Shown here: positions 12,471 to 64,000 of the stretch, one piece after another
How positions within the stretch are numbered: the first letter of the stretch is position 1
Layout of the letters: each line of letters begins with the position of its first letter
NCBI GenBank assembly: GCA_036172245.1
Contig: JAYWIR010000001.1
Coordinates: 2,108,001 to 2,172,000, forward strand
DNA: 64,000 bases
Reading direction: 5' to 3'
DNA from: Raillietiella orientalis
Lineage: Eukaryota
The notes under the pieces: generated by a model
Told to the model about the DNA's origin: nothing
Databases searched by the model: none
The model's input: only the letters and a program-made list of their open reading frames with translations
Position numbers and translations under genes: made by a program

Positions 12471-13002
12471 GATTTCCGGCGAAGAATAATCTGTGGACAA
12501 CCTGAGGATGGCGAGTTTCAACATCTGGGATCTGAACACCTCTCTCGAGAGGAGACCCGAAAAAGCAAGCAGAAAGAAGCACCGTCAAAACGTCGACGAC
12601 TCCCTAGAGACCCGCGTTGGCAAAATTGCCTTCGATGCCGATTCCTCAGCGTTCCGAAGTTCATCCTCATCTTGTGGATGGTCATGGGATTGTTTTCCGA
12701 GCTCGCGCGAATCTCCACACGAAGAAAACGCAGGCGTTTGTGAGGCATCTATTCGACGAAGGGCACGTTAAGGACACGGTGCATGGGAAGTCTATGGATT
12801 CTGTGGAGGAGAAACGGAGTGGAGTCGATCGAGGAGGCTCAACAGAACAAGCGGAGGGAGAGATCCACTCCAGCCAGCTACTCACCGCTTCCAGAGGAGC
12901 ACGGGCATCGTCGTCGGAGGTCGGAGGGCGTGGCCGTGAAGATATGTCTCTCGTACGCACGAAGACCCCACGGGGCTCGTGATGGCGCCTTCCGATGTAT
13001 TT

Positions 13003-31050: not shown

Positions 31051-31279
31051 TTAAAGGTGGCCGGAAGGCATCACTTGGACGAGTGGCAGAGGCATTCGGC
31101 GACTCGGCCGCGGCTTCGTGCTGCGTCAGCGCGGAGTCCAGGCGTTCGCTCTTGCAAAAGTTGGCTTGCAAGAACGAACGCCGGTCCGCAAGGGAATGGG
31201 AGCTCCGTTCGTCACCCAGCTGCACCGGGGAGTTTATTCCAAAAAACTGAACAAACCACCTGGGAACTGAGTTTCCAGA

Positions 31280-32015
31280 TTAAAGAACAAGAAGTTCAAG
31301 GAAAGAACTCCCCGACACGCAGGTCGGGCACCACGAAAGTCCAGAACAAGGTAAAGGGGACCACAAATAGATATACAAAATACAAAAAAAATATGGGAAA
31401 TGAGCCGACAAAGGCCTTTGGCTTCGACCGTTCCATCGTTTCAGAAGCTTCTCTAAATGCCAGCGATCTCCTTTCTTGCTTATTTGTTGAGATGAGATCA
31501 CTAGCTGACGTCCTCATGTTGACGGCTGCAATTCTGGTGACCACTCGTGACTCCAACAGGAGACGGGCCGTGACAATGGCGTGGATGCAACAGATCGTTG
31601 CGAGGACCGCACCTAACGAGAGGACGCCAATCTTGAAGAAGCAGCGCATGACATCCCTTGCGGTGTCCCCATGGTGCAGGAGCGTTGAAAGCAACCTCTG
31701 CCACAATCCTTGGGAGGGCACCGCAGCCGAAGGGCAGGTGCAGAAGCGATTCCACTGCTCCGCACCTTCGACAGTTCTGGAAGGCAACCTTCCTGGAAAG
31801 CAGGTGAGCGCGCTGATTGCAATGGAAATCCCAATGCACCAGCAGAAGCGCGTCCTGTTTCCACCGTAGAGGGAACACAGACGTGTCCACGCACGGAGGC
31901 ACCACAAGTTCTTCGGTGGGCACACTCAGGAGTTCGCTCCACCGAAGGAGTCCCTTGGGAACATTGCGAGGCGTGGCGGCGTCTGCCAGCTCGCTAGTCC
32001 TCCAGCCACCCATGG
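31280..32015 (-). mobile_element. GC-rich L1/Tx1-like 3' coding fragment
   Basis: PKGLLRWSELLSVP, LLLVHWDFHCNQR, CRRCGAVESLLHLPFGC; same subfamily as 54289-54705. Confidence 0.8.
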
Positions 32016-32089
32016 GTCGGGAGTACAAATCAATATGCATGTAAAATTCTACTCGAGGACACGATTAGTTCGCGGAATCGTATCGGCAT

Positions 32090-42149: not shown

Positions 42150-42550
42150 CCAGAATACTGTGTGGTGCACGGGTGCACCATCTCGAATGACCAACAAGGA
42201 ATCCCGGGACGCCATCTCCTCCGTCCTGAACTTCCTGAGAACGGCAGCCAGATGGCCCTATCTGGGACGTATCTGCATGGAACTTGCCGGCATACTGGAA
42301 AGGATGTAGAGGACGGCATGCAGTGGAACGTGATCCCTTCCCCAACCCCCCCTGCTTTTGTAAAAGGCGTTTTCTTTATTTTATTTCCCCACCCCCCTAC
42401 CCCCCAACTGCCGAGTCGAACCTCGCCGGCCTGCCGTGCCGCTGACTCGGCAAGTTCTGAACTCGTTCGGACTCTGTAGGACCTACGGCCCCACACATGT
42501 TTGTTTGTTGTTGAAATAAACGCCCCGGCGCACACGGGTGTCAAAACAAG
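42150..42550 (+). mobile_element. GC-rich L1/Tx1-like 3' end
   Basis: DAISSVLNFLRTAARWPYLGRICMELAGILERM*, family 3' UTR, aataaacgccccggcgcacacgggtg. Confidence 0.8.
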
Positions 42551-45114
42551 GAATCCCGTGCATCCATCTTGCAAAAAAAAAAACGCTCCATGTTTGCTAG
42601 GAAGAGATGAGGAGACTGACTGAATACGCAAGAAATCCACATTCCTGTCGCATTTCCAACTTGTTCCTTTTGGGAGCATTCCATCCTGGAATTTTAATTT
42701 CTGAAACCAGAACTGAGGAACCAGCATTCATCCGCGTTCTCCGAACAGCCAAAAGGATGCATGGCCGAAAAACTTCTGGTGCTGTTCACGTGTGTTTTCG
42801 ACACTTTTGGAAATTGACGGGAATGGGAACCGGAAGCGAGAGAAGGAACCATCTCGACTCCCATTCGGTGTCGCAACCAACCTATTTCCCATCGGCGTTG
42901 CTCACTGCACACCAACTGAACTCGTGCAACATCAGCAAACCACGCGAGCGGAACGAACACGTGTGGTCAGGGGGGAAATCACGCGCCAGGAATTCTAATG
43001 CCACCGTTCGCCCAGAGTCGAAGCACCTGAAGTCGTTCCCAAACACGCGGCGAACACGATGACACGTCAACTCTTCCACGGGGAACGTCCCTGGAATATC
43101 CTTTCCGCCACAATCCGGATCAAAAAAAAAAACATGGAAACGCGAGACCGACTCATGCGTGGATACGTGCATCGTGGGGGTCGCATTGGAAGGTTCCCCG
43201 TAGTTCCGGGGCGTCATACAAGTTTGCGGTTTGCACGCCAAGGAACCGCGGACAACCACTAAGCATTTTCGCCTTCCCTCCGTCGCCTTTTCCGCTCAGA
43301 AAATTTCTTGAACTTTTGTAACTTTCTTGAACTTTCGCTTCACAGTATACGCCGTGATCTTTCATTATAACCGGAAGAGAGAGGGGATCCATCGAGCATC
43401 ACGAGCAGTAAGCAGCATAACTGAAAGTTCGGAACATTGGAATTTCCAGCAACATGGTTTGCGACTTCAGATGGTCTCCCCTTTTCCATGCCGAATCGAT
43501 GAAGTCGTGTGGGAAACATCCCGACAGAACACGCGAAACCAGACAAACCGCCCAGCGCTCGGTAACGCGTCGGTCGCAAAGTACGAAAGTTCCCAGTCAA
43601 CGTGCTGCAGCAATCGGGAACGAACGGAACAAATTGTCAAGCATCTTTGGCCGATCGTCTTCTCCTCGGATCCAAAAGGCGCGCCAGTAGATCAGCAACA
43701 GCAACCGGGAGAAAGCAGAAGCATCTCTTGCATTTTCTCACGGATTCGCATTCGCCGCTCCCTCGGAAGCACGCAGGTGCTCCAAAACACGTTGGGTAAC
43801 ATTTCACCGTGCAGGCCAAGATCAGAAACTTGGCAAGAGGCAGACCGTTGACAACGTTCTTCGAAAGACGTCTTTGCGATGCCTATCCAACGATGCGTGC
43901 CTATCCGAAGAGCCTTCGTTCCGTTACCATAGAACGAGGAATCCAAGAAACAAACTGAAACATTATTTGTCAGATCATAATCACTTTCTGCAACGCCGAT
44001 GCAATGAATTTGGATTAAGATTTTGACGAAAACAGTCACGCGTCCATTAACCGTAAGAGCAGCTTCGCCATTTGCTGCAAACTCTCGGCCACGGTATTTC
44101 AAATTTTTGAAATATTCCATTCCATCGCACTTTTTCTCCAAACGAGAAACCATTTTGACGCTGACTTATTTATTCGCAAGTAAAAACACGTGAAAAGCTT
44201 CGGCTGACTTCTGTCCCGTGTACGGAAGAAGGAAGGAAGGAATGCATACCTGCTGGCAGGGAGTGCAGCTGGCGGCTGCTAAGCCGACCGAAGAGAGCGT
44301 TTCGATGTCCACACATGCAAAAGACTTCGTTCGAGGACTATTTTATCGATGGACAGCGTATGGAAAGTTCCATAATTTACTCATTGTCGCTACGGAGAAA
44401 TAATAGGTGAGTCACCGCACCCGTCCGAATTATGATTTTGGATGAAAAGTTCCAAGAGGGATGCATCAGGAGAAAAATTCGCTGCTCCTGCTTCCCGAAG
44501 CTTCCACTACGACCGATTAGACACGCTGCGGGTCGAGACATCCGCAGCAACCAAAACTGCTCGGAGTCAGCACTCTTGATTTCGACTCCAACACCCGTTC
44601 GTGCTTTCTCATCTTTCCATGCATTGCAGATACCACAACGAACAGAACAACAACAATGTAAGAGAGTTGGAAACTAAGTTCATCCTAATGACAAAAAAGG
44701 CCCTTTCCCTAGGTCGCAACGAGTAACCAACGATGTTCGCATCCATCCTGCTCTACGCATCTTCGTAGTTCCATCACTTTCAACCGAAGCAGAATTCCAC
44801 TTCCACGCACGCGAACGCTAAGGTAATCTACGAATTGGAACATCTGGTTGGATGCGCTTTCTCAATACGCAACAGCAGCGAGGCATATTAAGCCTCTTCT
44901 TAATTTGAGCGGGACCAGTTCGAAATCCGAGTTCGTTGGGAAGTCGGCAACCCTGCTTCGTTCCAGGGAGCCTGCAGAGCAAGTGCATTGTGCCTGGTGT
45001 CGCGTGAAATCGTCCGTTCCATAAAATAAGTGTGGAAAGCATCCCCAGCACGTTGCTCGGTCCAGCTCTGCAGTTTCTTCAATATAACACACGCGTGTCT
45101 GCAGAAAATGAACG

Positions 45115-46626
45115 ATGGCTGCGCCTGTGACGAGCCTAGCATCGCTCTCGGCAATGTACACAGACTCCGAAAACGATGACGATAATTCCGAAGAGGATGT
45201 CGATATTCTGCAGAAATTGAAGTCCAACTTGAATGCATTTGGAACTGAAACGCCAGTGCAAACGACGCCGGAGCCCGTAGCAGGTACCTCATTTCCTCCA
45301 AGTTCGGTTCGTTGCGAATCCGGGGCTCGTTGTGTGCCGCTTAGAATATTAGAACGCAGGCATCGGAGACAAACAGATTGTCAGGATGGTTTCCAAAGAG
45401 CATGTCGCTGTGGGAAGGGGGGAACTGCGGAGGCGTATTTTTTTTGAGTGGGGAAAATCCGTGGTAGACCTTGACAGTACATGCCCGAGAGTCAGTAGGT
45501 TCAGTGTTTTGAAGTGTCTGTTCAGGAAAGTTGCGTTTTGCGAGATGCTCAGTGTGACTGCCTGCATGGCAACGATTGGTCACCATCGGTTACCATTCGT
45601 TCATGTTTTCACTGCTGCGAAACCGTGGACTAAACAACTGTATGCTTGGAGGGCAAGAAAGAAAGAATGCTGTTGTGTCTTGTTCAGAAACAGTGAGTTG
45701 GTAAGCGTTTTTCATTCCGGAAGGATGGTCTTGAAATTCGAATCAAGCAGCTCGTGCTGGTTGTGTAGTGGCGAATGGATGAGCAAGTCAAAATGACTGT
45801 GATTCCTTGCAGATACTGCAAGCAAACCTGCAGTGTTGGTTCCATACAATGCCAATGAAACGATTCCTGAAATCGCCATTGAGAATATAGATGTCACTAC
45901 CGAAATTTCGGCACCGTACAGAAGCGACTCCGACTGGGAGAACAACGGCAACGATGCTGGAAGTGGCTCAGAAAGTGAAGACACTATAGGTGACTTCCTG
46001 AATGAAACAGATGGGCTTTCCCTGCCTCCCGAACCCAAGGGTCATTGTTCCAAACTGTTGCAAGTAAAATTCATCGGATTGTTTAATTCTGTTCCCGATG
46101 TTGGCGTTTCCAGGAAAAGATTTCCAAACTGTTTGAGAAACGCATACGTGAGAACATGGACATGAACAAGATAATTCAAAACAAAAAGGCCTTCCGCAAC
46201 CCCAGCATTTATGAAAAGCTCATTCAGTTTTGCAATATTGATGAATTGGGCACAAACTTTTCTCCTGTAAGTCACTGTTGGGAAAAGTTTAGCATGTTTG
46301 CTGCCTTGACATACAGGAAGTGTCAGATCCTCATCGATGGGGACCAGAGTCATTCTACGATCATTTAGCAAAGGTGCAAAAGGGTGAAATGGATAAGAGG
46401 GAAAAAGAGAAAAAGGATCGAACAAAGGTAACGTGTATAGGTTTCAGTTCGTGATTCATGTTGACTAACGATTAAGGTGGAATTTGTCTCTGGAACGGTG
46501 AAGAAAACTGTCGTTGAGGATGTATCCAAACGAAAATCAAAATGGGATCAAGCAGTTAGCACAAATGCAAAGTGCACATCTGCTATCCAACTTCCAGCAG
46601 GAACTTTATCCAAGAAGGTCAAATGA
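45115..46626 (+). CDS. SAP30BP: SAP30-binding protein (HCNGP domain), 5 exons
   Basis: SLASLSAMYTDSE N-terminus; LPPEPKGHCS..LQEKI..DMNKIIQNKKAFRNPSIYEKLIQFCNIDELGTNF; EKEKKDRTKVEFVSGT; KRKSKWD; stop 46624-46626. Confidence 0.93.
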
Positions 46627-46900
46627 AATCATGTTTTCATTGTGATATTCTGGATCACTGTTCTAATGCGAGCTCCTGCGTGGAGCAAATTGCAGCTGAG
46701 CGCGACAGTTTATTGAGGGGAAAAAAGGTTCCTGCGAGGCAGCGTGAAGTTTCTACTGATAGCAAATGTTCAAAGCAAAAAGAAACATTTCATTAACAAT
46801 AAATAGAAGGATGTTATTGAATTAAGAAATGCTAATTTGTTGATATGTTTTTAGTTTAGAATGTAACTTATTACACAGAGTGGTTCTTGTCCAAACAGTC

Positions 46901-48381
46901 ATGTATAAAATAGGTTTACCTCATAAAGTAACTTTGTTTCACATAAAAGGAATCTGGGTACAATTCGTATCGTCTTGGAATCAACAAATGAATAAGAGAC
47001 TGGAGAGTTTCATAGACTCCTTACAACAGCTCTCATCTTCCAACCAGTTGCATCCAGAACTAGTTAGCCATGTGACGGCTGTGCAGAGTGCCAAGTGCAA
47101 CCTAGCAGAGCTGGATTCCATGCAAGCAGGTAGACTGCCCATGCAGAGCATGTCTGGTTACCATGCTCACCATTCCATCAACTTTTTAATGTAGAATAGC
47201 AATTCAAAAGGTCGACTTTTGTTCCAAAGGGGCCCTTGCTTTGCAGGGTGCAACGAAGGGGTGATTTTTTTTAACATGCAATATTGTATTTGCAGAGTTT
47301 GGGAAAGATGTTGAGTTGCAAAATTGCATTGAAGCAGAAAAATCCGCGTACAAAGAAAAACTGGCAGCTCTACAGCTGCAAGTAAGATTGCATGAAATAA
47401 ACCACACGGATGTTTTCTTAGATTTTGCAAGTGCTTGTTCCTTCCACGCGCATGAATTCTGCAGATACTCTTTTGGAAGTAAAAGCTGGCATAGGAGGAC
47501 AGGAGGCCATGTTGTTTGCACATGAACTTTATACCATGTACCGTAATTTTGGTTCTCTCAAGGAGTGGAACTGTGAAGTACTCTCCCTGTCCGAATCAGA
47601 ACTCAGTATGGCGTATTTAAATTTGCCAAATGTAATTTGTATCAGGAGGTATCCGACAGGCATCCCTTTTATTTTCTGGCGCGGATACTTATCAACTGCT
47701 ACAGTGTGAAGCTGGTATTCATAGAGTGCAAAGAGTTCCAGTAACAGAATCAGCTGGTCGTGTGCACACAAGTACAGCAGCTGTGGCAGTGTACCCTTGT
47801 CCAGATAAAGTAATGCTTGGAAACGTGATTTTACGCATAACAGGCAGAACGCTCAGATCCACATAGTCATCAATCCCAAGGACCTCAAGATAGAAACCAA
47901 GCATTCCAGTGGAGCTGGTGGGCAGCATGTGAATAAAACTGAAAGCTGTGTACGAATAACTCATCTTCCCACAGGTAAGATTCGGATCTCGAGTCTCTTT
48001 GAAGTGCATTGCTTTCCAGGCATCACAAGTGAGTGCCAGACTCAGCGTTCTCAGATCTTCAATCGAGAACAAGCTTTAAAAAGCCTACATGCCAAACTGT
48101 TTAACTTGAAACTGGATGAGCAGAAGAAATTCGTGCAGGCAACACGGAGCACTCAGATAGGAATTGTGGATCGGTCTGCCAAGATTCGCACTTACAATTT
48201 TGTGCAGAACAAAGTCACGGATCACAGAATCAAGGTGTCTTTGCATGGAGTGGAAGAATTTTTGAAAGGCAACAAAATGCTTCAACAGCAAATGGAAGCT
48301 GTGCTGAACGTTCATCATCTGCAAATTCTGGAAGTGCTCATGAATAACGAGGAACTCTGCTCACTGTTCCGGAAAGCATGA
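46901..48381 (+). CDS. MTRF1L: Mitochondrial peptide chain release factor 1-like, 6 exons
   Basis: [30 protein letters not shown] (PxT motif), [14 protein letters not shown] (GGQ), KIRTYNF.Q.KVTDHRI; spliceosomal introns (e.g. 47381-47421, 47607-47645, 47975-48019) show it is nuclear. Confidence 0.93.
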
Positions 48382-50629
48382 GTGAGCATGGCCTCCAATC
48401 ATTCCACAGATTCAAACTGCCCTTTCCTAAAAACGTGCAAACGACCTCGTACGCCATGCTTCTTGTCACCCAACTCTCGCAACAACCAGTTTATCTTTAT
48501 CTTTGCTTTGAGTTGTCCAAGTGCGTTCAGCCACTTTTGTTTGCGTGTTGGATTCTGAAGAATGCAAACATGTTTTGCAGGAATTATAAAAAAAGGGTAA
48601 AGAATTCTGCATGAATGAATAGGTAACAAGTTGAGAGAGCACCTTGTTTTGTTTGTCCACCAAGTACAGAGCTCTCCATTGTTTTTAAAAATGCCATCTG
48701 TTGAAAGTGTTTCCAGAACAGTAAAGTTTTGAAGTGATCATTTGCTGTGCTATACTAGAGAAACACTTAGCTTGAAAGATAGGACCAACTGAAGCAATTA
48801 TGGTGCCTGGCCCAGAAAGACTTTAAGTGAATACAAGGAAGTGAGGAAATTTTTAGGCAGTTGGAGCAAAAGAAGCTTGGACTTCTCTGTAATCAGCATT
48901 TTTCGTTGATAAATGCTGTGAGCTGAATGCACAGAAAAGTGCATCTGTGACAAACTACCTCAACTTTTGTGAACTATGCGATTTGCTGGATGTAAGTGAA
49001 GTCCACATGAAATTGATTGTATTTATTGTAACGTACCTCAAAAATTGTTTCTTGTCTAAGATGAAGTTGGGAGTATATTGGGATCTGTGTGCTGGAACTG
49101 TCTCTTGCCATAATCCCTATGTCTGTCTAAGTAAGCCATCCTGTTATTATCCATAGGTATCAGCAATGCTGCAGAATTATACACTTTACATTAATTGTAA
49201 TTGTTATTTATGTTAGTTCCTTTGAGAGGGGAAATGATGGTTCCTGCTTGTACATCACAGCATAATTGCAGCATCTACATTTCCAAATCATCAGTCTTTC
49301 TGGTGATTTCATGAGATCATTGAAGTTTTTATGAAAACTTCAATGATGCGCATTAACATATAAGAACTACAAGAACAGCAGATTCTTGCAGATCAGAAAT
49401 TTCATCAACAGACATGCAGGACCTAATTCAAAAGACCATTTTCCTTTGTTACTACTTCATGTGGCCCACTGATTACAATGGAACAATTTTAAATTAAGGA
49501 TTTCCAAGTTTTCAATGCACACATCAGTATTTGATGCAGGTAGAAGCAACTGAGCATACTCACAGTACTAAAGATGCTCAGATTCACTTTTCCCAGAATG
49601 GCAAAGACCTTGTTTTTGCAAAACATCTGTGTTTTTTAAAGTCCCTTGAAGTGGTACATTAGAAGTTGTAGGTACCTACTGATGATCCATTGAACCTGGA
49701 AACATCAGTTTTCAAACAATTCTTTGTACCTCTATTGAACTACCCACTAAACTGTCAAACCTCTTGGAAAAAGAAGAAATTAAGGACAAAAACAAGGTTA
49801 AAAGATAGCATCTAGTAGCAGAGGGAACAGTTCCCCATTGCTACCCAATATCCTATGTAGAGCCGAAATTTTCAGAAAATTAAAAGTAGTAGTGGCAGCA
49901 TCTAATTATTACTGATTATTGCTGATTGGACACAGTTTCAGGCACATCGGACACGTCCATATATAATTTCATTTTCGCAAAACAGGAAGGGTGAGATTTT
50001 AAAGACTTAGGATATAGCTAAGGCAAACCCAGTAGTCTTATTTCTCACTGGAAAATACGTTTGATACGATGAACGATATAACAAAAAGTTGATTGAAATC
50101 AAATCTGCTTTGTATTTCTGTGTTCTTTTACACACAAAACAAACACAAAACTGGTTTTCGCAAGCTTCATTTCACACACAAAATAAACGGACTAAGGTTG
50201 ACAATAAAAAACAAAGCATAACAAAACAGCAAAACAAGCTTAAGTTTTCAAACAATATTTGTTCCTTGTACAACCATTGACAAGTTAAATCACATTCCGC
50301 TTCCAGCAAATTATAATCGCTGAGCAGCAGCTTTCATTTCAAAACTCCAGATTAAGAATTCGAAATTCTACCCGTGTAACACGTTTGGTTTGAGGATTGT
50401 AACCAGTTGGCCCTGTTGTTTGCTGTCCAGTGCTCTCTAAACCTAAAAATCGTCAGCATGCACTACAGGTGGCCGAGAGGCACCAGGACAGCAGTCTCCG
50501 TACACCGAACATACGGTAGACTCGAATGAAGCCCCTCCTGCTCTGTATAGTAGCTAAGAAAATCTCCAGCACTTTAGACCACATCAGTACACACAAGAGG
50601 TATTTTTTCTTTTTTTTTGTTTAAAGCTT

Positions 50630-51310
50630 GGCTTACTGATTATTGGAAAAATGAAGCTTCACAGAACTTGGAGCTATCTCTTCAGATTGCAAAGACTCTT
50701 TATGAAATTCTGTGATTAATTCCATCCCAGGGAAAAACTTTTTGGAAATATCTGGAAGATTCACCGCTATCTTATCATCATCCTGATCAAATCTTGCAAA
50801 AAGGCTAGTTGTGATCAAAAATTAAGATCACTTTCATCCTCCATTTCAAGCCCTTAGAGATGATGACAAGGAATGCAAGGATGCAATACCAATAGTGCTT
50901 TCATCAACTCTTCAAAACTAAAGACATAGCACATTCACTTACGAAATACATCAGTACCATATTTCTGCGATAAGATAGAAGCTTGTTTGAACAATGCAAT
51001 TAGGCCATGCAAGGCCTAATTGCATTAGTCGGTCCTAATTACTCATCTACTTTCACAATATCTTACCATAATGATATCACGCTATAATATCTTCAGGAAA
51101 CAACTTACTTTTAAATCCTGAGTATCCAGTTTTTCAAACTCTCAATTTTATTGTAACTCAAAATGCATTTTTTTCCAATTGTTATTTAGTATTTCGAATC
51201 ATAGCTATATTGAGAGAGTGATCACCTGTTGATACCTTCCATAGCTTCATCATCGCTTAAAATTTTGGAATTCATCTTTTCTATATGATAGTTTTCATTT
51301 TTTTTTAAAA
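50630..51310 (-). mobile_element. Decayed AT-rich L1-clade ORF2, downstream half (APE end to RT start)
   Basis: KMNSKILSDDE (WKLN.SLL.D-like) at ~51270 and KKFFPGMELITEFHK (K.PG.DG..EFYK-like) at ~50730. Confidence 0.55.
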
Positions 51311-51317
51311 AAAAAGG

Positions 51318-54270
51318 CCAGTAGCGACACCACGAGATCGTTACTATTGGCCTAGGACGAGGGAAATCCTTGGGTTCTTCTTTTTTCTTCTGTCTTCGCT
51401 GTTTTCCTTCCAGCTTTCTTTTTTTAAAAGTTTTTTCTTTGGAGGGGTTCACTAAGTACCTCAGAGCCGGTCGCGTGCTTCGCGGCACACGTGGCTCTTT
51501 TTTTAAAACATTAAACACAGTTTTGTTTCCACACCTCTCCGCCCGCGGCAACCCGCAGGATGGAGTGCAATTCCTCAGTACAATTCTTCAGGATAGGGGG
51601 CGCCCCGAGATGGGGGTCCGCCCTGTGAATCCAGGAAAGGCTCGGAGTCCGTTCCTCCCATGGTTGGGGAGGGATCCCCCCGGAAGAGGGGGGATCGCAC
51701 CTCTCACCCTGGTTGTCTCCGAAGGGGAACCCCGAAGGGAATCTCCTTCCTCATTCTCTCCGGAGGGACACCCCCCGGGAGGGGGGTGTTCCTCTACATT
51801 TCAACATCTCCGAAGGGAACCCGGAAAGGATCCGCTTGTAGGAATTCTTCTCCGGAGGGGACCCGCAAGGGAACCGCGCCTGTTCACTCTTCTGAAGAGA
51901 ACCCCAAAGGGACGCTTCCGAAACTCAGAAGGGGCGCTGCAGCTTCCTGCAGGGAGTCGCTCTCGCTTGCTTCCTTGTGCACACTCTGTGAAGATGAGAC
52001 GACCCGGAGGGACCCCCCAATAGGGGGGGTACGCTCCTTTGAACAACTGGAGAGGTGCCCGCGCGGGCTCCTGCTCCATCTTGAAACCGGAGGCGCTTCC
52101 CCGGTGACAGGGGTCCGCTCTCCGTTGCACGACCAGAGGGGGAACTCCCTAGTCCTTGATTCCTGGGAGGACCCGAAGATCGACTCCCATTGTTCCGGCC
52201 TTCACCGGGGGGCTCCGGCTTAATCCACCGCCGGTGCCACGCCCGAATGTCTCGGCCAACCAGCACCGTTGCAGGAGAAACTCGGAACCAAACGGCGCAG
52301 TGGCGTCAGTTATCTGCCGAAGTATTCGAACCCGCGACGCATGGTGCCACGCACGGAAGCCTTAACCACAAACCCTCCGACTCGGGCGCTGGTTTTCATT
52401 TTTTCTAGCTCCAGTTTCCATTATTTTACGAATTCTATCATTTAGTATGGCTTCCGTATCATCAGCTGAGGGCTGAAATGTCACTAACATTTCAACTGTT
52501 GACTCAATTCCTTCGATGGGCCTATCTGCTTCTATTACTGGCAAAGTCGTCGGTGTGGCAGTCGGAGCGACGTGGGCAGGACGGCCTGACTGGATCCGCT
52601 TGGGGATCCCCACGGCAAGGTACCTGAAGTACCTGGGTGTTCCGTTGGGGGACTTATGTCCAACAGAAGCCTGGTCAGGTCGTCTCCAGAAAGTGAAGTT
52701 GGCGATCGGCCCGTTCCTGGAAGGCAAGGTTCACTTGCCTGAGCGGGCCGCGGTTTGGAACGCCTTCGCGGCCCCTATCTTCCGCCCCCTACTTTTTGTT
52801 TGCCCCATCCCCGTGGAAATTAAGAAGAGGACCAAGGACCTCTTCCGCATTGCCCTCTGGGGCAAGGGGAGGCCCCGAGCCCTTTGAAGGACTTGTCCGC
52901 TCCGCGTCGGGACGTCGGTCTTAGCCACCTGACGCTGGAGCGCGTCGGAATTCAGCTGCGATGGCGCACCATGGACATCGCAGCGAAGCTGTGGAGCATC
53001 CTATGGTGCATTCCGGCCCGCCTCCTCGCCAGCCGTGTGTCTCGGTGCGATGGACTCGCGTCTTTCTTCTGTGCCGCGGCCGGAAGATCCGAAGATGCGG
53101 CCTACTGCTCGGGAACAGGGCAACCCTGGCGAAGGAGAACAGCTGGATGGTTTGTAGCCCCGCCAACTCCTCCGCCTGGCTGAAGAAGACTGCTGGCACT
53201 TGGGCTAAGCTAAACCAGAAGAGTAAAGATCCCATGAATTGCCTGCGAGTCGGTCCATACGCCCGCCGCACCCTGCGGGAAATACTTGAATTTCCCGCGA
53301 GTAGCTCCTATGCGGAGACTACCCCCCTTGCTACGGCGATGCCCTACCTCCAGAAGGCGCTTCACGGCATCCAGAAGCCGAGGTGGCAAGTCTCCTGCCG
53401 AATCGCAGGCAGGGAGGAGATGATGAGCGGCTGGACAACAGGAGAACTAGAGGACGCCACGACCCCGAGCGTCCAGCCGAGAGGACTTTTGCGATGGGGC
53501 GAGCTGCTCGCCATCCCCATGGATGTGCTGAAGTGGCCCCCGGTGTTGGAATCGAGGATCCTGCCCCTTGAGTGGCAAGAATCGGCGCTGCTACTGTTGC
53601 ATTGGGGTTTACCCTGCAACGCACGCCGCTTCCACTGGACAAGGGGAGCGGTGGATCCTCAGTGTGCCAGGTGCGGAGAGCGGGAATCGCTCTCCCACCT
53701 ACTTGTTGACTGTGCTGCCTACGACCCCTCTGGGAACGGTTTGGGACGACCCTCGGGCTTCCGGTGGGCAGCCAACCCAGAGACGTTCTCCGTCTTTTCT
53801 TCGTGCGGGACGCCCTTCAGCCAGCTGCAGCCGTGGCAGCACTCTGCTGAATCCGAGGCATCGTGGGGCCTGGAGCGATACCCGCGACGAAGGAGTGGAT
53901 TCAAACGCGATGGCTGTCATCCCGTATGCTGTTCGCTTCTTGAGAAGAGCTACTGGATGGCCCCAACTTGGGAGAATGAAGATAGACCTCCAAGGCATCC
54001 TGCAAAGGGTGGGCCCTCCCCGCAGGGGACTGTGATCCCTTCCCGGCCCTCCAAACTCTTTTTGTTTGTTCTTTTTTCTTAATTTTATTTTATTTTTGTT
54101 TTCAGTCCCATCCCCTTCCCCTGCCGAGGAGTGCCACACCGGCTGCGTCCCGGCGTCCCGGCAGGTCCGGCATTGCGTGGCCGTTAGTGGGGCCTTGTAC
54201 CACGTGCTGTGATGACGAATGAAACGTTTTTTTTTTAATAAACGCCCCGGCGCACCCGGGTGATAACCAG
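51318..54270 (+). mobile_element. Long, internally deleted GC-rich L1/Tx1-like element
   Basis: LKYLGVPL, ERAAVWNAFAAP, PRRDVGL, PRGLLRWGELLAIP, LLLHWGLPCNARRFHW, CARCGERESLSHLLVDC, family 3' UTR. Confidence 0.88.
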
Positions 54271-54288
54271 CCGCCCCCCGACGTCATC

Positions 54289-54935
54289 ATGCTGGTGCAT
54301 TGGGGTTTTCACTCCAACCAGCGGACGAACTGTGTTTCCGCGGGAGTTGTCTCCCCAAACTGTAAGTGGTGCGGGGAAGTGGAAACGCTCCCGCACCTGC
54401 TCCTGGACTGCGGTGCCCTCCTAGGACTTTGGCGGAGGCTAGCCTCAGCCCTCCTTCACCAGGGGGACACCGCGAGAGACTTGATGCGCCGCTTCTTCAC
54501 GCCAGGCGGCCTGTCTTTGGGTGCTGTCGTTGCAACCGTGTGTTGCACCCGCGCCATCGACAAGGCCCACCGAGAGCTGGAGAAGCTGGCCATCCTTCGT
54601 CAGCCCACCGGACTAGCCAGCGCAAACATGTCGTCGGCTGCCGAGTGGACCCATCTACCAGAGAGCGTGAGGAGAGAGATCGCCGGCATCCATCGCCGGT
54701 TCTGAAAGGAAGGAACGGCCGTACCAAAGACCCCTGTCCCCTGCCCTCCATATCTTTATTTTATATTTTTTTATACTAGTGTATTTGTGGTCCCCTCCCT
54801 CCCGTTCCGGACTTTCGGTATACCGACCTGCGTGTCGGGGATCCCACCCCCTTCGTATCTTGTTTTCCCCTTTGTCCAGGAACTCTGTTCCCGGATAGTT
54901 TTTCAATAAACGGCCCGGCGCACCCGGGTGATAAC
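54289..54935 (+). mobile_element. 5'-truncated GC-rich L1/Tx1-like copy with an uninterrupted 138-aa CCHC/C-terminal frame
   Basis: ORF 54289..54705 contains CKWCGEVETLPHLLLDC; 3' UTR ends aataaacggcccggcgcacccgggtg. Confidence 0.85.
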
Positions 54936-55125
54936 CAGCCGTCCCCCTGCGATGTTCTCAATCTCCTGGGCGTTCTCCGCGGTGATCACGTGGATCTCCT
55001 GCAGGAGCGCCAGGTCGAAGTCACGCAGGGTGTTGGCCGTATCCCGCCTGTTGCCGTCGTCGCGCAGCCCGTTGACGTTCCAGCAGGCTACACGGATCCG
55101 ACGGCGACAGGCGAGTCCAGGTGTT
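54930..55125 (-). mobile_element. APE endonuclease N-terminus, antisense to the flanking copies
   Basis: Stop-free RIRVACWNVNGLRDDGNRRDTANTLRDFDLALLQEIHVITAENAQEIENIAGGRLVIT. Confidence 0.85.
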
Positions 55126-55129
55126 AATC

Positions 55130-55870
55130 CTGGGAAAGTGGCAATGGGGCTTCCGCCACCTGGTCGGGCGGGACGCTAGGAGGAGGGGGTGCGTCGCGCA
55201 CCGCTTCTCCCTCCTCCATGGGGACCGAATCGTCGTCAGGACCTGCAGAGGAAGGGGGATCTCACCCATCTGCTCCCCCTCCTCCATGGGGGTTGCCAGC
55301 TGCACGGTGCAGGCACATCAGGGAGTGTAGACGTCAATTGTGCAAGTTGCATGAAACAGGAAACCTTCCCCCACCTCATCGAGTGTGCCGCCCTTCGCCC
55401 CATGTGGGATCGACTCTCATCGATTCTGAACATTCCAGTGGGAGACCGAAGTGGAGAAGTGGACTTGTTGAGGAGAGGACACCAAAGCCAGGATGCAATT
55501 CATTGGGCAGTCATCTCCATGGAGAGGGCTTCCCGATAGCACCGGTTGAGAAAAATTTTACCGGCATTCGTCCGCATCCAAAACCGGATGCAGAGGCTTT
55601 CTCGTGGCGTACCCTGATTCCTTCCCTTCCCTCCCCTCTCCTTGAAATTTGTCGCCCTTTGTATTTTTGTTTTTTTTTGTTATTTTTTCTTTTTGGTTTT
55701 CCCGTCCCCTTTGCCGGTGAAGAGGACCTCACAGACCTGCGGGTCGGTAAGGACAAGTGCGCCAAGAACCATGTGCTCTGACTGAAAAAACTGACGAAAA
55801 GACTAGACTTTATTATAAGATTTAAAATAAAATTTTAATAATAAAAACCCCGGCTTATCAGGGTGAAAAA
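55130..55870 (+). mobile_element. GC-rich L1/Tx1-like 3' portion
   Basis: CASCMKQETFPHLIEC, AIHWAVISMERASR, family 3' UTR, aataaaaaccccgg..cagggtgaaaaac. Confidence 0.83.
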
Positions 55871-57400
55871 CTTCTGTTACTGCATCTCTACACATGGGTT
55901 CTTTACATTCGCGCAAATTATTCATCTGCATTGTAGAAAATTGTTGTAAAAATTTAGTCTTGTATTTTTGTTATTTGATTTCGTTGCCACTCCTAACGTT
56001 CATGAACAAGATTACATAAGGAATTTATTTTTTTTCGGAAAATCTTTTTTGATTCATACCTTTGGAATGTCTTCGATAGAAGAGCATGCAGAATCTTGTA
56101 AGCATTCCTCGTTAGCGAAATTCGAAACTTTCATCAGTCTTGTTCTATTACATTTTCGTATGTTGATTACCAAACAGGTTGGTAATGATTGGTAAACAGA
56201 TTGGTATCAAGATGGGCTTTTTTTATCGGTAGAGCAATCAGAACCATTACTTCCTCATTTCTTCAGAAAGGAAGTTTCACCAATATACTTTTTCGGAGAA
56301 CAACGATCAGTGTCATCAAACAGTTTCATATTCTCATCAGTACTTTGCTCCTGCACTCTTGGCAATTCAAAGATTCTTTCAGACATTTGTTTCTTACGTG
56401 ATGGAATTTGTACTTCACATTTGGGGGCATTAATCAAATGGGTGATTCCAAGTCAAATCAGGACAAAGTAGCTGGTATACATTAAATAGTAACTTCTACT
56501 CTTGCAAATGCAGACATTCGTGATCTAGGAAGGCTTCACATGTATTGGAGGTCTCAAAACAGTAATAGTCTTTTCTTTGTATTCGTCGAGGATCAATTCC
56601 TAGTTTATTCGATACGGGTGTCCACCCTTCGAGTTTCATTCTCTTTAAACGTTTCTCGCGATCTAAACTCACTTCAGTGGTCAAAAGGAGAAAATTCAAA
56701 ATTGCTTTCAGGTAATCGAAATCGATCGCAGTTTTTACATTAAATGAGGGAAACACCTCTTACTATCTGGATAGCTATGCTTCCAGTCCACTCATTTCTC
56801 GCTTGCTGTATCCTGCATCCCAGTCACACACCACGATCCTTTAATGTCCCCTGTCAGTTCACTGCAATTTGCGTATTTTAATTCCTTTTTCTCTTCCTCA
56901 TTTCGAACATCAATTCAAGACGGACTAAGCTTGCTTGCAAGGTACTCCCAGGGAATCCATAACACACAATTTCGAACTCATCTATAACTCATCCAAGTGC
57001 AAGAATACAAGTTGAAACAGAACTGCGTGTCTGTAAAGTTTCAAATACCGAGAATCTTTAACTGCACACAGAGTTACTTGCATTTCTGGAATGGCATCAG
57101 TCTTTCTAGGAAACTGTAGAAGACTTGTTAATCTTTCTGCAGAGTCTCATTTGAGTCACGAATGGAACTGGGAAGGATTAGCTTTACCTAATTTAGTTTT
57201 CTTTGCAGGTATAGCGTGAGTTCTTTTGCACTATAGACCATATGCTTATTTGGACACTCTGAAAGTAGCTGAGATCTTACGCTTAGCTTTACGACAACTC
57301 CACGACGCAATTTTCTGATGGATTCCTTCACCTTATTCGCATCCCTACATACTTTCTCATACACTTTTCTGAATCTCAATGTATGGTGGTAAATTCAGGT
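55865..57400 (-). mobile_element. Decayed AT-rich L1-clade element, upstream half (ORF1-like region plus APE start)
   Basis: VILFMNVRSGN (S.NVRGL-like) at ~56000 and a degenerate KE(T)H at ~55900; weak Cys/His knuckle remnants at ~56430-56550. Confidence 0.5.
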
Positions 57401-59573
57401 CATCTCAGCATGCTGCTCTAGAGGTAACCAAGTCACCGACAGGATGACCCAGTTCTAAAGTTTCATTCTGATTATAGGTCTAGGTTGCTCGGTTTATTTC
57501 AGTTTTTACTCTTTTGCACTGCAGTCAACCGGCAGAAAGAATAACACGCTGCTAGTTCATGGAATCCGGAGATACAAACTTTGCTAATTCGGGAAGACTA
57601 GATCGTGAGAAAGAAGATTCTGGCTCCACGTGCCATATCATGCTGTACTATCAGAAAGGTACTAAAAAAACTATTGTGGACTCCACATCACGAAGGACGT
57701 TCTTTTCCATGAGATTAGGAATCAGAGAACTGGAAAAGACAAAGCAGTAGTTGCATTCATGAGACAACTCAGCATCCTTATGTTAGACTGTGAATCAGTC
57801 TGACATCAGGATGCTGAGGTGATCAGTGATCATTACAGCATTTCCTAACTACCACAAAATATGCTTGTATCAGAGAATGAATGTCTGACGAAGTCACTTC
57901 ACGAAAATGCATCAAGATTGTGCCTGTCATAGTTACCATAAATGAATACTATTCTCAGAGAAGTATACTCACTTGCTGTCTCCACAAAACGGGATTGTGA
58001 ACCAAAAAATCAGCTGCACTGTCGATAATACACTATGTTACAAATAAACATGTGAAGATTCCTGAAAATCCTCGAATACGTGATTTCTCTTCGGCTTCCT
58101 TTACGTCTTGTGCATGCTGGAGAATTTCACGAGAATCGTGTGCAGCGGAAAAGGCAAGCGTGACTACGAAGGATGCGCAGGACGGAATCCCAAATTGTGA
58201 TGGGTAACAAGTACAAATGTAAGTAAAGTCGCGGGAAAATGAACAAATTCGTAAACATGTCGACGGATGAACTAAACTCTGTTTATTCGTGCAATACTGA
58301 GCATTTGTGGTGATGAATGAGGTGACAGATAAGTACGTCTTCCCTCATGAAGTGGATGCATTCCTGACGGTCAGCAATAGGAACAGAATCAAAATGAAAC
58401 TTTACAACTGGGTCATTCTGCTGGTATTTGTTTTCTTATTATCCAGAGTTCAGAACTTTTAAGTGATCTTCTGCACCTTCGCAGCAATCACAGTCGAGAC
58501 GATTTGTCCTTAAATATCTGAATTCTATATGTGAAGAGCTCCATGTCCAATGCGTGAACCTGTTAAGGGATGAAAGAACAACTCTGCAAAAAACACCGTT
58601 TTTTGCAGAATTCGAATGAACATGTGTTGTCAACCTGTCAGAGTATCAGAGTACAATGGGAGCACTCATCCAAAGCAAATGAGTGCACCTTCCCAAGAGC
58701 AAAGTTGATTTCACCATTTGATCATTGCTAATTGAAGACAACTGCCTATCATTCAGCTCTTGGATGGGTTTAATTTCCTCTTTGGAAATTTGGCAATGTG
58801 TAGCAGGTGGCACTTAGAGGAAATTTCTTTGCAGGCAACACTGTGAGGTAAATGCTGCTTAGGAGTTGTGGGGAAGTTCAAGATGAATGGAGTTTTTCCT
58901 AAGGAAAGATAGAAATAAAAACGCGAAATTTTTTTTTTAATTTCTTCCTCAATTATTCACACAAACAAGACTGTTATGCTAAACGAAAGTTGATGTAGGG
59001 TTTGTCACAGATGCACTTTTCTGTGCATTCAGCTCACAGCATTTATCAACGAAAAATGCTGATTACAGAGAAGTCCAAGCTTCTTTTGCTCCAACTGCCT
59101 AAAAATTTCCTCACTTCCTTGTATTCACTTAAAGTCTTTCTGGGCCAGGCACCATAATTGCTTCAGTTGGTCCTATCTTTCAAGCTAAGTGTTTCTCTAG
59201 TATAGCACAGCAAATGATCACTTCAAAACTTTACTGTTCTGGAAACACTTTCAACAGATGGCATTTTTAAAAACAATGGAGAGCTCTGTACTTGGTGGAC
59301 AAACAAAACAAGGTGCTCTCTCAACTTGTTACCTATTCATTCATGCAGAATTCTTTACCCTTTTTTTATAATTCCTGCAAAACATGTTTGCATTCTTCAG
59401 AATCCAACACGCAAACAAAAGTGGCTGAACGCACTTGGACAACTCAAAGCAAAGATAAAGATAAACTGGTTGTTGCGAGAGTTGGGTGACAAGAAGCATG
59501 GCGTACGAGGTCGTTTGCACGTTTTTAGGAAAGGGCAGTTTGAATCTGTGGAATGATTGGAGGCCATGCTCAC

Positions 59574-61054
59574 TCATGCTTTCCGGAACAGTGAGCAGAG
59601 TTCCTCGTTATTCATGAGCACTTCCAGAATTTGCAGATGATGAACGTTCAGCACAGCTTCCATTTGCTGTTGAAGCATTTTGTTGCCTTTCAAAAATTCT
59701 TCCACTCCATGCAAAGACACCTTGATTCTGTGATCCGTGACTTTGTTCTGCACAAAATTGTAAGTGCGAATCTTGGCAGACCGATCCACAATTCCTATCT
59801 GAGTGCTCCGTGTTGCCTGCACGAATTTCTTCTGCTCATCCAGTTTCAAGTTAAACAGTTTGGCATGTAGGCTTTTTAAAGCTTGTTCTCGATTGAAGAT
59901 CTGAGAACGCTGAGTCTGGCACTCACTTGTGATGCCTGGAAAGCAATGCACTTCAAAGAGACTCGAGATCCGAATCTTACCTGTGGGAAGATGAGTTATT
60001 CGTACACAGCTTTCAGTTTTATTCACATGCTGCCCACCAGCTCCACTGGAATGCTTGGTTTCTATCTTGAGGTCCTTGGGATTGATGACTATGTGGATCT
60101 GAGCGTTCTGCCTGTTATGCGTAAAATCACGTTTCCAAGCATTACTTTATCTGGACAAGGGTACACTGCCACAGCTGCTGTACTTGTGTGCACACGACCA
60201 GCTGATTCTGTTACTGGAACTCTTTGCACTCTATGAATACCAGCTTCACACTGTAGCAGTTGATAAGTATCCGCGCCAGAAAATAAAAGGGATGCCTGTC
60301 GGATACCTCCTGATACAAATTACATTTGGCAAATTTAAATACGCCATACTGAGTTCTGATTCGGACAGGGAGAGTACTTCACAGTTCCACTCCTTGAGAG
60401 AACCAAAATTACGGTACATGGTATAAAGTTCATGTGCAAACAACATGGCCTCCTGTCCTCCTATGCCAGCTTTTACTTCCAAAAGAGTATCTGCAGAATT
60501 CATGCGCGTGGAAGGAACAAGCACTTGCAAAATCTAAGAAAACATCCGTGTGGTTTATTTCATGCAATCTTACTTGCAGCTGTAGAGCTGCCAGTTTTTC
60601 TTTGTACGCGGATTTTTCTGCTTCAATGCAATTTTGCAACTCAACATCTTTCCCAAACTCTGCAAATACAATATTGCATGTTAAAAAAAATCACCCCTTC
60701 GTTGCACCCTGCAAAGCAAGGGCCCCTTTGGAACAAAAGTCGACCTTTTGAATTGCTATTCTACATTAAAAAGTTGATGGAATGGTGAGCATGGTAACCA
60801 GACATGCTCTGCATGGGCAGTCTACCTGCTTGCATGGAATCCAGCTCTGCTAGGTTGCACTTGGCACTCTGCACAGCCGTCACATGGCTAACTAGTTCTG
60901 GATGCAACTGGTTGGAAGATGAGAGCTGTTGTAAGGAGTCTATGAAACTCTCCAGTCTCTTATTCATTTGTTGATTCCAAGACGATACGAATTGTACCCA
61001 GATTCCTTTTATGTGAAACAAAGTTACTTTATGAGGTAAACCTATTTTATACAT
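59574..61054 (-). CDS. MTRF1L: Mitochondrial peptide chain release factor 1-like, duplicate copy
   Basis: Inverted copy of 46901-48381 with identical ORF translations. Confidence 0.9.
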
Positions 61055-61328
61055 GACTGTTTGGACAAGAACCACTCTGTGTAATAAGTTACATTCTAAA
61101 CTAAAAACATATCAACAAATTAGCATTTCTTAATTCAATAACATCCTTCTATTTATTGTTAATGAAATGTTTCTTTTTGCTTTGAACATTTGCTATCAGT
61201 AGAAACTTCACGCTGCCTCGCAGGAACCTTTTTTCCCCTCAATAAACTGTCGCGCTCAGCTGCAATTTGCTCCACGCAGGAGCTCGCATTAGAACAGTGA
61301 TCCAGAATATCACAATGAAAACATGATT

Positions 61329-62840
61329 TCATTTGACCTTCTTGGATAAAGTTCCTGCTGGAAGTTGGATAGCAGATGTGCACTTTGCATTTGTGCTAAC
61401 TGCTTGATCCCATTTTGATTTTCGTTTGGATACATCCTCAACGACAGTTTTCTTCACCGTTCCAGAGACAAATTCCACCTTAATCGTTAGTCAACATGAA
61501 TCACGAACTGAAACCTATACACGTTACCTTTGTTCGATCCTTTTTCTCTTTTTCCCTCTTATCCATTTCACCCTTTTGCACCTTTGCTAAATGATCGTAG
61601 AATGACTCTGGTCCCCATCGATGAGGATCTGACACTTCCTGTATGTCAAGGCAGCAAACATGCTAAACTTTTCCCAACAGTGACTTACAGGAGAAAAGTT
61701 TGTGCCCAATTCATCAATATTGCAAAACTGAATGAGCTTTTCATAAATGCTGGGGTTGCGGAAGGCCTTTTTGTTTTGAATTATCTTGTTCATGTCCATG
61801 TTCTCACGTATGCGTTTCTCAAACAGTTTGGAAATCTTTTCCTGGAAACGCCAACATCGGGAACAGAATTAAACAATCCGATGAATTTTACTTGCAACAG
61901 TTTGGAACAATGACCCTTGGGTTCGGGAGGCAGGGAAAGCCCATCTGTTTCATTCAGGAAGTCACCTATAGTGTCTTCACTTTCTGAGCCACTTCCAGCA
62001 TCGTTGCCGTTGTTCTCCCAGTCGGAGTCGCTTCTGTACGGTGCCGAAATTTCGGTAGTGACATCTATATTCTCAATGGCGATTTCAGGAATCGTTTCAT
62101 TGGCATTGTATGGAACCAACACTGCAGGTTTGCTTGCAGTATCTGCAAGGAATCACAGTCATTTTGACTTGCTCATCCATTCGCCACTACACAACCAGCA
62201 CGAGCTGCTTGATTCGAATTTCAAGACCATCCTTCCGGAATGAAAAACGCTTACCAACTCACTGTTTCTGAACAAGACACAACAGCATTCTTTCTTTCTT
62301 GCCCTCCAAGCATACAGTTGTTTAGTCCACGGTTTCGCAGCAGTGAAAACATGAACGAATGGTAACCGATGGTGACCAATCGTTGCCATGCAGGCAGTCA
62401 CACTGAGCATCTCGCAAAACGCAACTTTCCTGAACAGACACTTCAAAACACTGAACCTACTGACTCTCGGGCATGTACTGTCAAGGTCTACCACGGATTT
62501 TCCCCACTCAAAAAAAATACGCCTCCGCAGTTCCCCCCTTCCCACAGCGACATGCTCTTTGGAAACCATCCTGACAATCTGTTTGTCTCCGATGCCTGCG
62601 TTCTAATATTCTAAGCGGCACACAACGAGCCCCGGATTCGCAACGAACCGAACTTGGAGGAAATGAGGTACCTGCTACGGGCTCCGGCGTCGTTTGCACT
62701 GGCGTTTCAGTTCCAAATGCATTCAAGTTGGACTTCAATTTCTGCAGAATATCGACATCCTCTTCGGAATTATCGTCATCGTTTTCGGAGTCTGTGTACA
62801 TTGCCGAGAGCGATGCTAGGCTCGTCACAGGCGCAGCCAT
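61329..62840 (-). CDS. SAP30BP: SAP30-binding protein, duplicate copy
   Basis: Inverted copy of 45115-46626 with identical ORF translations. Confidence 0.9.
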
Positions 62841-64000
62841 CGTTCATTTTCTGCAGACACGCGTGTGTTATATTGAAGAAACTGCAGAGCTGGACCGAGC
62901 AACGTGCTGGGGATGCTTTCCACACTTATTTTATGGAACGGACGATTTCACGCGACACCAGGCACAATGCACTTGCTCTGCAGGCTCCCTGGAACGAAGC
63001 AGGGTTGCCGACTTCCCAACGAACTCGGATTTCGAACTGTTCCCGCTCAAATTAAGAAGAGGCTTAATATGCCTCGCTGCTGTTGCGTATTGAGAAAGCG
63101 CATCCAACCAGATGTTCCAATTCGTAGATTACCTTAGCGTTCGCGTGCGTGGAAGTGGAATTCTGCTTCGGTTGAAAGTGATGGAACTACGAAGATGCGT
63201 AGAGCAGGATGGATGCGAACATCGTTGGTTACTCGTTGCGACCTAGGGAAAGGGCCTTTTTTGTCATTAGGATGAACTTAGTTTCCAACTCTCTTACATT
63301 GTTGTTGTTCTGTTCGTTGTGGTATCTGCAATGCATGGAAAGATGAGAAAGCACGAACGGGTGTTGGAGTCGAAATCAAGAGTGCTGACTCCGAGCAGTT
63401 TTGGTTGCTGCGGATGTCTCGACCCGCAGCGTGTCTAATCGGTCGTAGTGGAAGCTTCGGGAAGCAGGAGCAGCGAATTTTTCTCCTGATGCATCCCTCT
63501 TGGAACTTTTCATCCAAAATCATAATTCGGACGGGTGCGGTGACTCACCTATTATTTCTCCGTAGCGACAATGAGTAAATTATGGAACTTTCCATACGCT
63601 GTCCATCGATAAAATAGTCCTCGAACGAAGTCTTTTGCATGTGTGGACATCGAAACGCTCTCTTCGGTCGGCTTAGCAGCCGCCAGCTGCACTCCCTGCC
63701 AGCAGGTATGCATTCCTTCCTTCCTTCTTCCGTACACGGGACAGAAGTCAGCCGAAGCTTTTCACGTGTTTTTACTTGCGAATAAATAAGTCAGCGTCAA
63801 AATGGTTTCTCGTTTGGAGAAAAAGTGCGATGGAATGGAATATTTCAAAAATTTGAAATACCGTGGCCGAGAGTTTGCAGCAAATGGCGAAGCTGCTCTT
63901 ACGGTTAATGGACGCGTGACTGTTTTCGTCAAAATCTTAATCCAAATTCATTGCATCGGCGTTGCAGAAAGTGATTATGATCTGACAAATAATGTTTCAG

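Follow-up and report, generated by a model that had tools for sequence, protein, structure and literature searches.

A putative target-site duplication beside a single antisense APE fragment among nested LINE copies of Raillietiella orientalis

The question raised by a stretch of 64,000 nucleotides (nt) of Raillietiella orientalis DNA (assembly GCA_036172245.1, contig JAYWIR010000001.1, positions 2,108,001 to 2,172,000 of the forward strand; hereafter the window) is whether copies of a GC-rich family of long interspersed elements (LINEs) are repeatedly joined by their 3′ ends to the same site of an antisense gene for an apurinic/apyrimidinic endonuclease (APE). A sequence-only reading had listed several such junctions and offered two explanations, namely (a) that the family inserts antisense into the endonuclease genes of other LINEs, and (b) that tandem insertion with twin priming anneals at one fixed APE site. 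In the present analysis, which covered the window, one public sequencing run of a related genome, and databases, a single antisense APE fragment (X) was found next to the family copies, together with a 12-nt direct repeat flanking a 5′-truncated copy (copy B) that lies between copy A and X. There would therefore be one A/X junction, copied once by the insertion of copy B, in place of the repeated joining that had been proposed. The region is best explained by LINE insertions of the ordinary kind, nested or in tandem, such as normally result from target-primed reverse transcription.

Host exons recognised with Pfam (T-box, bZIP, HCNGP, PCRF, and RF-1) mark the window as animal DNA, with a background GC content of about 30-40% and GC-rich stretches (50-62%) at about 10-44 kb and 51.3-55.9 kb. 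The 3′ terminus of the family consists of a T-run, AATAAAC, the palindrome CCCGG-loop-CCGGG, and TGAWAAC, poly(A) being absent. Ten clear 3′ ends were observed, with the following last bases:

54267, 54935, 55871, 42547, and 32480, plus strand
28382, 31207, 12997, 11386, and 24476, minus strand

An nhmmer profile built on these ends recovered the same ten and a degenerate end near 10403 on the minus strand, and a 12th end, also degenerate, was located near 16146 on the plus strand. The common end AATAAA-palindrome-GGGTGAWAAC described earlier for this family was thus confirmed in 10 clear and 2 degenerate copies.

The apparent junctions are found around copy B, the features of which are as follows:

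54268..54279, unstranded: 5′ copy of the putative target-site duplication of copy B, CAGCCGCCCCCC, core of what had been taken for a 30-bp APE stub
54280..54935, plus strand: copy B, 656 nt, 5′-truncated, with CCHC motif, 3′ untranslated region, and terminal motif (weak Pfam zf-RVT match, E 0.009, below the cut-off)
54936..54947, unstranded: 3′ copy of the putative duplication, CAGCCGTCCCCC, being the first 12 nt of X
54936 to about 55293, minus strand: X, apparently an inverted 5′-terminal LINE piece, with the first 60 or so APE codons, cut after ...IAGGRL (Pfam Exo_endo_phos, E 0.0014-0.0027)

On the antisense strand, 54937-55115 reads ...RIRVACWNVNGL...DFDLALLQEIH...ENIAGGRL (in full, ...RIRVACWNVNGLRDDGNRRDTANTLRDFDLALLQEIHVITAENAQEIENIAGGRL); the WN..G and D...LQE motifs are hallmarks of the APE fold. 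X matched positions 3-46 of 225 of the Pfam Exo_endo_phos domain (E 0.0014, 18.9 bits, below the cut-off of 24.5), and its residues 9-57 aligned to the exodeoxyribonuclease III chain 5j8n_A with an E value of 1.3. To judge from these alignments, X would be a short but credible APE N-terminus, and the claim that a real one adjoins a family 3′ end at 54930 held, as X follows directly after copy B. Two antisense ATG codons upstream (55287-55285 and 55219-55217) are candidate starts, and the piece ends near 55293, so that X has the appearance of the extreme 5′ end of a LINE. A motif of about 19 nt containing an ATG (antisense CCCCATGGAGGAGGG) occurs twice in X, about 67 nt apart, at 55207-55225 and 55273-55292 on the minus strand, and may have arisen by duplication of the start region or 5′ end of the element. 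X was the sole Exo_endo_phos match among all 427 stop-to-stop open reading frames (ORFs) of at least 70 amino acids (aa) in the window, as well as among 105 ORF fragments of at least 30 aa from both strands of the 450 nt that follow each of the ten clear ends, the flanks of the two degenerate ends being covered by the ORFs of at least 70 aa. A second copy of X was not found in the window.

Directly after the last bases of A (54267) and B (54935), the repeat CAGCCG[C/T]CCCCC was observed, with 11 of 12 positions identical, and beyond it two of the next six letters agree. Copy B shared 68.7% nt identity over 556 nt with its closest relative, copy F, and the first homologous base of B is 54280, that is, immediately after the repeat. 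The 12-nt direct repeat is best read as the target-site duplication of the 5′-truncated copy B, and its length fits the other candidate duplications of the family, since copies E, J, and I have 11, 9, and 10 nt, respectively. Copy J (about 420 nt, 5′-truncated) has a perfect 9-nt repeat at 32061 and 32481, copy I a 10-nt repeat with one mismatch, and copy E, on which one of the other APE cases had been based, is located as follows:

42207..42547, plus strand: copy E, 341 nt, 5′-truncated, with a perfect 11-nt duplication, AAGGAATCCCG, at 42196-42206 and 42548-42558

Truncation at the 5′ end together with a duplication was also seen for a larger block that contains copy B and is described below (11 nt, 10 of 11 identical). 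In all four cases of single copies with a candidate duplication (B, E, J, and I), the 5′ duplicate is preceded by the two bases AC, which resemble the terminal AAC of the family.

The stub at 54260 can be resolved into its parts. In the peptide DVGGRLVIT, VIT is read from the strand complementary to the final 8 nt of A (element terminus GTGATAAC), GGRL corresponds to the duplicated 12 nt, and DV to the first two codons of B. It was rightly noticed that the same letters follow A and B, but the second occurrence would be the duplication of B and not an independent junction, and GGRLVIT is not APE throughout, VIT being derived from the element tail. In blastn, only the last 38 nt of A and B matched (94.7% identity), and their proteins shared 47.7% identity over 44 aa in tblastx; A and B belong to different subfamilies. 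The 3′ end of B is its own, because the relative F carries its own terminal motif. A 50-nt target-site duplication comprising the tail plus the 12 nt was considered and set aside, as a tail of its own is present in F at the corresponding position.

It might be argued that the 12 nt (CAGCCGYCCCCC after the tail GGGTGATAAC) belong to the element, as a longer 3′ end of this subfamily or a 3′ transduction present in A as well as in B. The close similarity of their last 38 nt despite unalignable bodies makes a shared 50-nt tail conceivable; however, copy E shares the loop and the tail and is followed by different letters, and the 12 nt run in frame into recognisable APE on the other strand. The related genome bears on the same point. 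Its sequencing run, the sole run in which any part of the window was detected, shares 7% of the sampled words of the window, and 214 contigs fit at a likeness of at least 80%, 150 of the 214 being less than 90% alike; the contigs mentioned here are examples among the matches listed and are not counts, and the bins 52400-52530, 55675-55805, and 55937-56300, which had no depth in this run, were excluded from interpretation. Both the family and X-like sequence are multicopy in that genome, with a summed depth of 35-39 in the bins 54889-55150. At least four contigs span the end of B, all with A in place of C at 54935; their match to the window stops at 54939, and not at 54947, after which they continue into mutually unlike sequence (agreement 0.52, median 99 letters). 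As these contigs diverge past the end of B, the 12 nt do not form a constant component of the element and B-like ends in that genome have various flanks, so that a 12-nt extension of the element is very unlikely. One further contig fits X from 54980 rightwards and has 255 other letters to the left, 30 of which, translated by hand in the frame of X, give DEQAAEIEER versus AENAQEIENI in the window. By this comparison, the left part of the contig appears to be a diverged APE that continues at least over those 30 letters.

If the family had a preferred target, its ends should be followed by similar sequences. The ten clear ends have nine different 3′ flanks, in which only A and B share their first letters; since the first flank letters differ in all the other ends, no common target is indicated. 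Antisense APE was found at one of the 12 3′ ends in the window scan (X after B), and in the 3′ flanks one of the 105 ORF fragments matched, which is no enrichment and is the outcome that the sequence-only reading had itself named as refuting its proposal. Several further junctions of that reading disappeared on inspection. The supposed AT-rich APE at 55865 (55872-56024 antisense, with a stop read as X) gave no Pfam or PDB match at E ≤ 10, and no APE match at E ≤ 0.05 was obtained among 68 ORF fragments of at least 28 aa from both strands of 55872-59000. The case at 42540 (42541-42761 antisense) was likewise without a match at E ≤ 10, and copy E has its own duplication there. The flanks of the cases at 11385, 13005, 28385, and 32470, already considered weak, had no APE match; the 3′ flank of copy D, which ends at 28382, is an antisense copy of the post-reverse-transcriptase region of the family itself (28138-28368), representing plain nesting.

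Reading (a), in which the family is a site-specific LINE with an endonuclease directed at a conserved site within the APE gene of other LINEs, so that its antisense insertion there disables them, would, if true, have described the first LINE specialised to disable other LINEs. In its favour are the one genuine join of an antisense APE N-terminus to the 3′ end of a family copy and the X-like APE sequence that is multicopy in the related genome. Against this, one of 12 ends adjoins an APE, the second junction is the target-site duplication of B, the other flanks share no motif, copies E and J are each bounded by a separate duplication in sequence other than APE, neither the AT-rich APE nor the 42540 case gave a match at E ≤ 10, and the contigs of the related genome leave the end of B into unlike sequences. 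Moreover, the remainder of the supposedly interrupted APE was not found on the 5′ side of the insertion, and no further X-like sequence was found in the window; the DNA 5′ of A is AT-rich, A3 (the part of A that bears its 3′ end) being preceded by an 11-nt repeat and AT-rich DNA and the more upstream piece, A-left, by AT-rich DNA. Reading (a) thus appears extremely improbable.

A repeat of 11 nt, TTCT[A/G]TTACTG, bounds the whole block exactly, with GC contents of 0.48-0.65 inside versus 0.38 and 0.33 outside. In addition to copy B and X, the block and its borders comprise:

52530..52540, unstranded: left 11-nt repeat, TTCTATTACTG, directly 5′ of A3, a target-site duplication probably left by the founding insertion, matching the right copy at 10 of 11 positions
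52541..54267, plus strand: copy A3, 5′-truncated, with the post-YADD part of the reverse transcriptase, CCHC motif, 3′ untranslated region, and terminal motif; 58% aa identity over 108 aa to copy D (tblastx)
55294..55871, plus strand: copy C, 5′-truncated, of an AT-richer subfamily, with CCHC motif, 3′ untranslated region, and terminal motif ending GGGTGAAAAAC; 5′ boundary ± 7 nt
55872..55882, unstranded: right 11-nt repeat, TTCTGTTACTG, followed by AT-rich host DNA

Copy C gave a tblastx match to A, and its 3′ untranslated region resembles that of copy I (24476). X is inverted and located directly 5′ of the sense, truncated copy C, which is the layout of twin priming; no repeat flanks X plus C alone.

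The block is probably a pile-up of 5′-truncated copies of an APE-type LINE, nested or in tandem in AT-rich host DNA, with A3 inserted first, X plus C second, and B last. In the history that we infer, involving twin priming and homing by complementarity, the founding insertion of A3 would have made the 11-nt duplication that now bounds 52541-55871. A second event would have placed X, the inverted 5′ end, and C, the sense 3′ end, between the last base of A3 and the host flank in the fashion of twin priming. Copy B would then have inserted exactly at the A/X boundary, duplicating the first 12 nt of X. New copies may land at a resident 3′ terminus since a target nick would be used next to ...AC; the AC before the duplicates suggests priming on a short AC/GT match, and a resident 3′ end would offer extended complementarity to the tail of the incoming RNA, which would account for the position of the two later events, both at the 3′ terminus of a resident copy.

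The same block could also have been formed elsewhere as A3-12 nt-B-X-C and been transferred by one read-through RNA ending at the tail of C, giving a single 5′-truncated insertion of 3.3 kb. One 11-nt repeat bounds the whole of 52541-55871, as this would require, and 3′ ends without poly(A) would make read-through plausible. A-left, however, 138 nt upstream, ends where A3 begins, pointing to a local event with a D-type RNA that ended at the tail of A and not at that of C. This route, which we regard as unlikely, would in any case only place the nested insertions at a different locus, and APE targeting would gain nothing from it.

Reading (b) requires the 3′ end of a resident copy to act as a primer at a fixed site: the free end ...GGGTGATAAC-3′ would anneal to GTTATCACCC (codons V-I-T) in the APE gene of the incoming RNA and prime inverted cDNA. 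The stub after A and X after B would accordingly be two independent inverted pieces starting from the same codon, and the APE gene of the family should read GTTATCAC after the GGRL codons. It is in keeping with this that both junctions are at the same nucleotide, that the antisense frame is continuous from X into the element tail (...GGRL followed by VITRVRRAVY and a stop), and that X next to C has the twin-priming layout. But the stub is only 12 nt, a normal duplication length, and the homology of B follows at once; a target-site duplication explains the stub without a second rare event; no other such junction was observed among the 12 ends; and protein searches gave no full-length APE of the family showing GTTATCACCC after ...GGRL. 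Repeated use of a fixed site therefore seems quite unlikely. Reading (b) was right in that A and B are head to tail and X and C have the twin-priming layout, but not in the fixed APE site used repeatedly, as there would have been one event and not two. A broader form, in which the family homes to resident 3′ termini through pairing of its RNA tail with the DNA of the resident copy and the end ...GGGTGATAAC primes inside its own APE gene, so that inverted pieces start at one fixed codon throughout the genome, is likewise rather improbable; were it true, twin priming would be sequence-programmed and would build head-to-tail and head-to-head arrays.

Several observations weigh against the stepwise history of A3, then X plus C, then B. 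The order of events is one that we infer, and a single read-through RNA (A3-B-X-C) would give the same outer 11-nt repeat. Twin priming needs X and C to come from one RNA; the GC content is 65% in X versus 48% in C, and about 3 kb of the element would have to be lost between the two pieces, an uncommon situation in classical twin priming. All four contigs of the related genome that leave the end of B run 4 nt (CAGC) past its last base before diverging, a feature for which this history does not account. The duplications of J and I are individually weak, as an estimated 0.2-0.7 matches of 9-10 nt with one mismatch are expected per 6.4 kb searched. Finally, the covariation of the terminal hairpin is not significant: in the palindrome, 86% of 50 cells pair and two pairs change on both sides, and 86 of 500 shuffles do as well.

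In most respects, the copies resemble the products of target-primed reverse transcription of APE-type LINEs, being 5′-truncated (B, E, and J), bounded by direct repeats of 9-12 nt, and located inside or next to each other, such as the antisense family copy in the 3′ flank of D. They differ from those of ordinary APE-type LINEs in the lack of poly(A), the fixed terminal motif, and the AC before the 5′ duplicate in four cases. Twin priming was reportedly first described by Ostertag and Kazazian. In L1, as outlined in PMC2837659, it leaves a truncated piece in inverted orientation next to a 3′ piece in sense orientation, and the inverted X, reaching the apparent 5′ end of the element with its start codon directly 5′ of the sense truncated C, is similar to that outline; the missing 3 kb and the absence of a duplication around X plus C alone set it apart. 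X plus C is a candidate twin-priming inversion outside mammals, and the window is a clean worked example of a target-site duplication that mimics a recurrent junction.

LINEs of the stringent type have a reverse transcriptase that recognises a 3′ stem-loop, as reviewed in PMC3747384, and the family is like them in its conserved 3′ motif with a short palindrome, the absence of poly(A), and subfamily bodies that are 40-58% identical in aa over matched stretches. Unlike in those LINEs, the stem here is 5 bp, covariation is not significant, and there is no partner short interspersed element (SINE). The conserved tail is probably what the reverse transcriptase of the family recognises. Single folds of the terminal palindrome were unremarkable, with z-scores of -2.25 to +0.49. 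A scan of metagenomes with a 21-nt tail pattern gave one locus (L001, 801-821), which is GC-rich, has neither AATAAAC nor a T-run, and was taken as a chance match. The family itself, GC-rich within an AT-rich animal genome and ending in a fixed 3′ tail that lacks poly(A), is not known to have been described. Xenopus Tx1 sits in another transposon. The Tx1-group LINEs, named as target-specific in the same review (PMC3747384), are comparable in that a family 3′ end adjoins another mobile element here, but they have the same target in every copy, in contrast to the nine different flanks of ten ends in this family.

The GC-rich stretches translate as the tail of a LINE ORF2. Copy D reads ...SAYADDLLLL... 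and shows, by eye, the post-reverse-transcriptase motifs KYL.VPL and ALWG, and a C-terminal CCHC knuckle (C-x2-C-x7-H-x4-C) is present in copies A, B, C, and D. No Pfam match to RVT_1 was obtained at E ≤ 0.01 among the 427 ORFs of the window, because the copies keep only the tail of the reverse transcriptase and none reaches 5′ beyond the YADD region; likewise, the 5′ third of the element is reached by no family copy in the window. The copies are old and diverse, sharing 28-70% aa identity over matched stretches (tblastx). Word-indexed protein database searches with X and with the ORF of A gave no relatives. A full HMMER search with the latter gave two weak matches, one to an RVT_1-bearing protein fragment (P0005, E 7e-4), matched in its post-reverse-transcriptase part, and the other to a repetitive bacterial PPC-domain protein, taken as spurious; neither carries an APE domain comparable with X.

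Upstream of the block, a further piece of the family was observed:

51304..52391, plus strand: A-left, 5′ part of a D-type element of 2.4 kb, with a perfect 13-nt repeat, GTTTTCATTTTTT, at 51291-51303 and 52392-52404

In terms of the element, A-left stops at about the point from which A3 continues, although 138 nt of AT-rich DNA separate the two. A single element thus appears to have been divided between two neighbouring sites of insertion, both with a duplication of their own; we know of no standard mechanism for such a split. Copies D (28382-30792, minus strand) and A (51375-54267, plus strand) have the same 5′ start and a non-coding 5′ region of about 600 nt with short internal repeats, joined to only the last third of ORF2. 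The D/A type looks like an internally deleted, non-autonomous derivative of about 2.4 kb that has itself been copied. A tRNA-like SINE at 52090-52390 was considered and rejected, as ARAGORN found none and the stretch reads as degenerate reverse transcriptase motifs.

Copies G, H, and K at 10403-14160 and F and D at 28382-32060, all on the minus strand, form runs in the same orientation with spacings of a few hundred bases, which may be further head-to-tail arrays. The homology of K begins at most 222 nt after the 3′ end of H, being seen only from 222 nt downstream; a start of K exactly at that end, by which H and K would be a further tandem pair, is thus a mere candidate.

A perfect inverted repeat of at least 5,001 nt (43955-48955 versus 59000-64000, 100% identity) runs off the end of the window; its arms mirror the host exons HCNGP, PCRF, and RF-1, and its spacer of 10,044 nt contains the whole A3-C region. 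Either the palindrome is of very recent origin or the assembly has produced it as an artefact. To the right of C, a sub-threshold XPA_N match at 56006-56098 on the plus strand (E 8.5e-5, 23 bits versus a cut-off of 27.1) is followed by a GTAAG-like donor. An XPA-like host exon was not accepted here, since the match is below threshold and no XPA_C was found downstream to 59000; the match is a weak hint of host sequence right of C. Just 3′ of the degenerate family end near 16146, an ORF at 16123-16623 on the plus strand encodes a clear C-terminal domain of cytochrome oxidase subunit II (Pfam COX2, E 2.9e-17), and may derive from mitochondrial DNA copied into the nucleus or represent a cox2-like gene of the nuclear genome.

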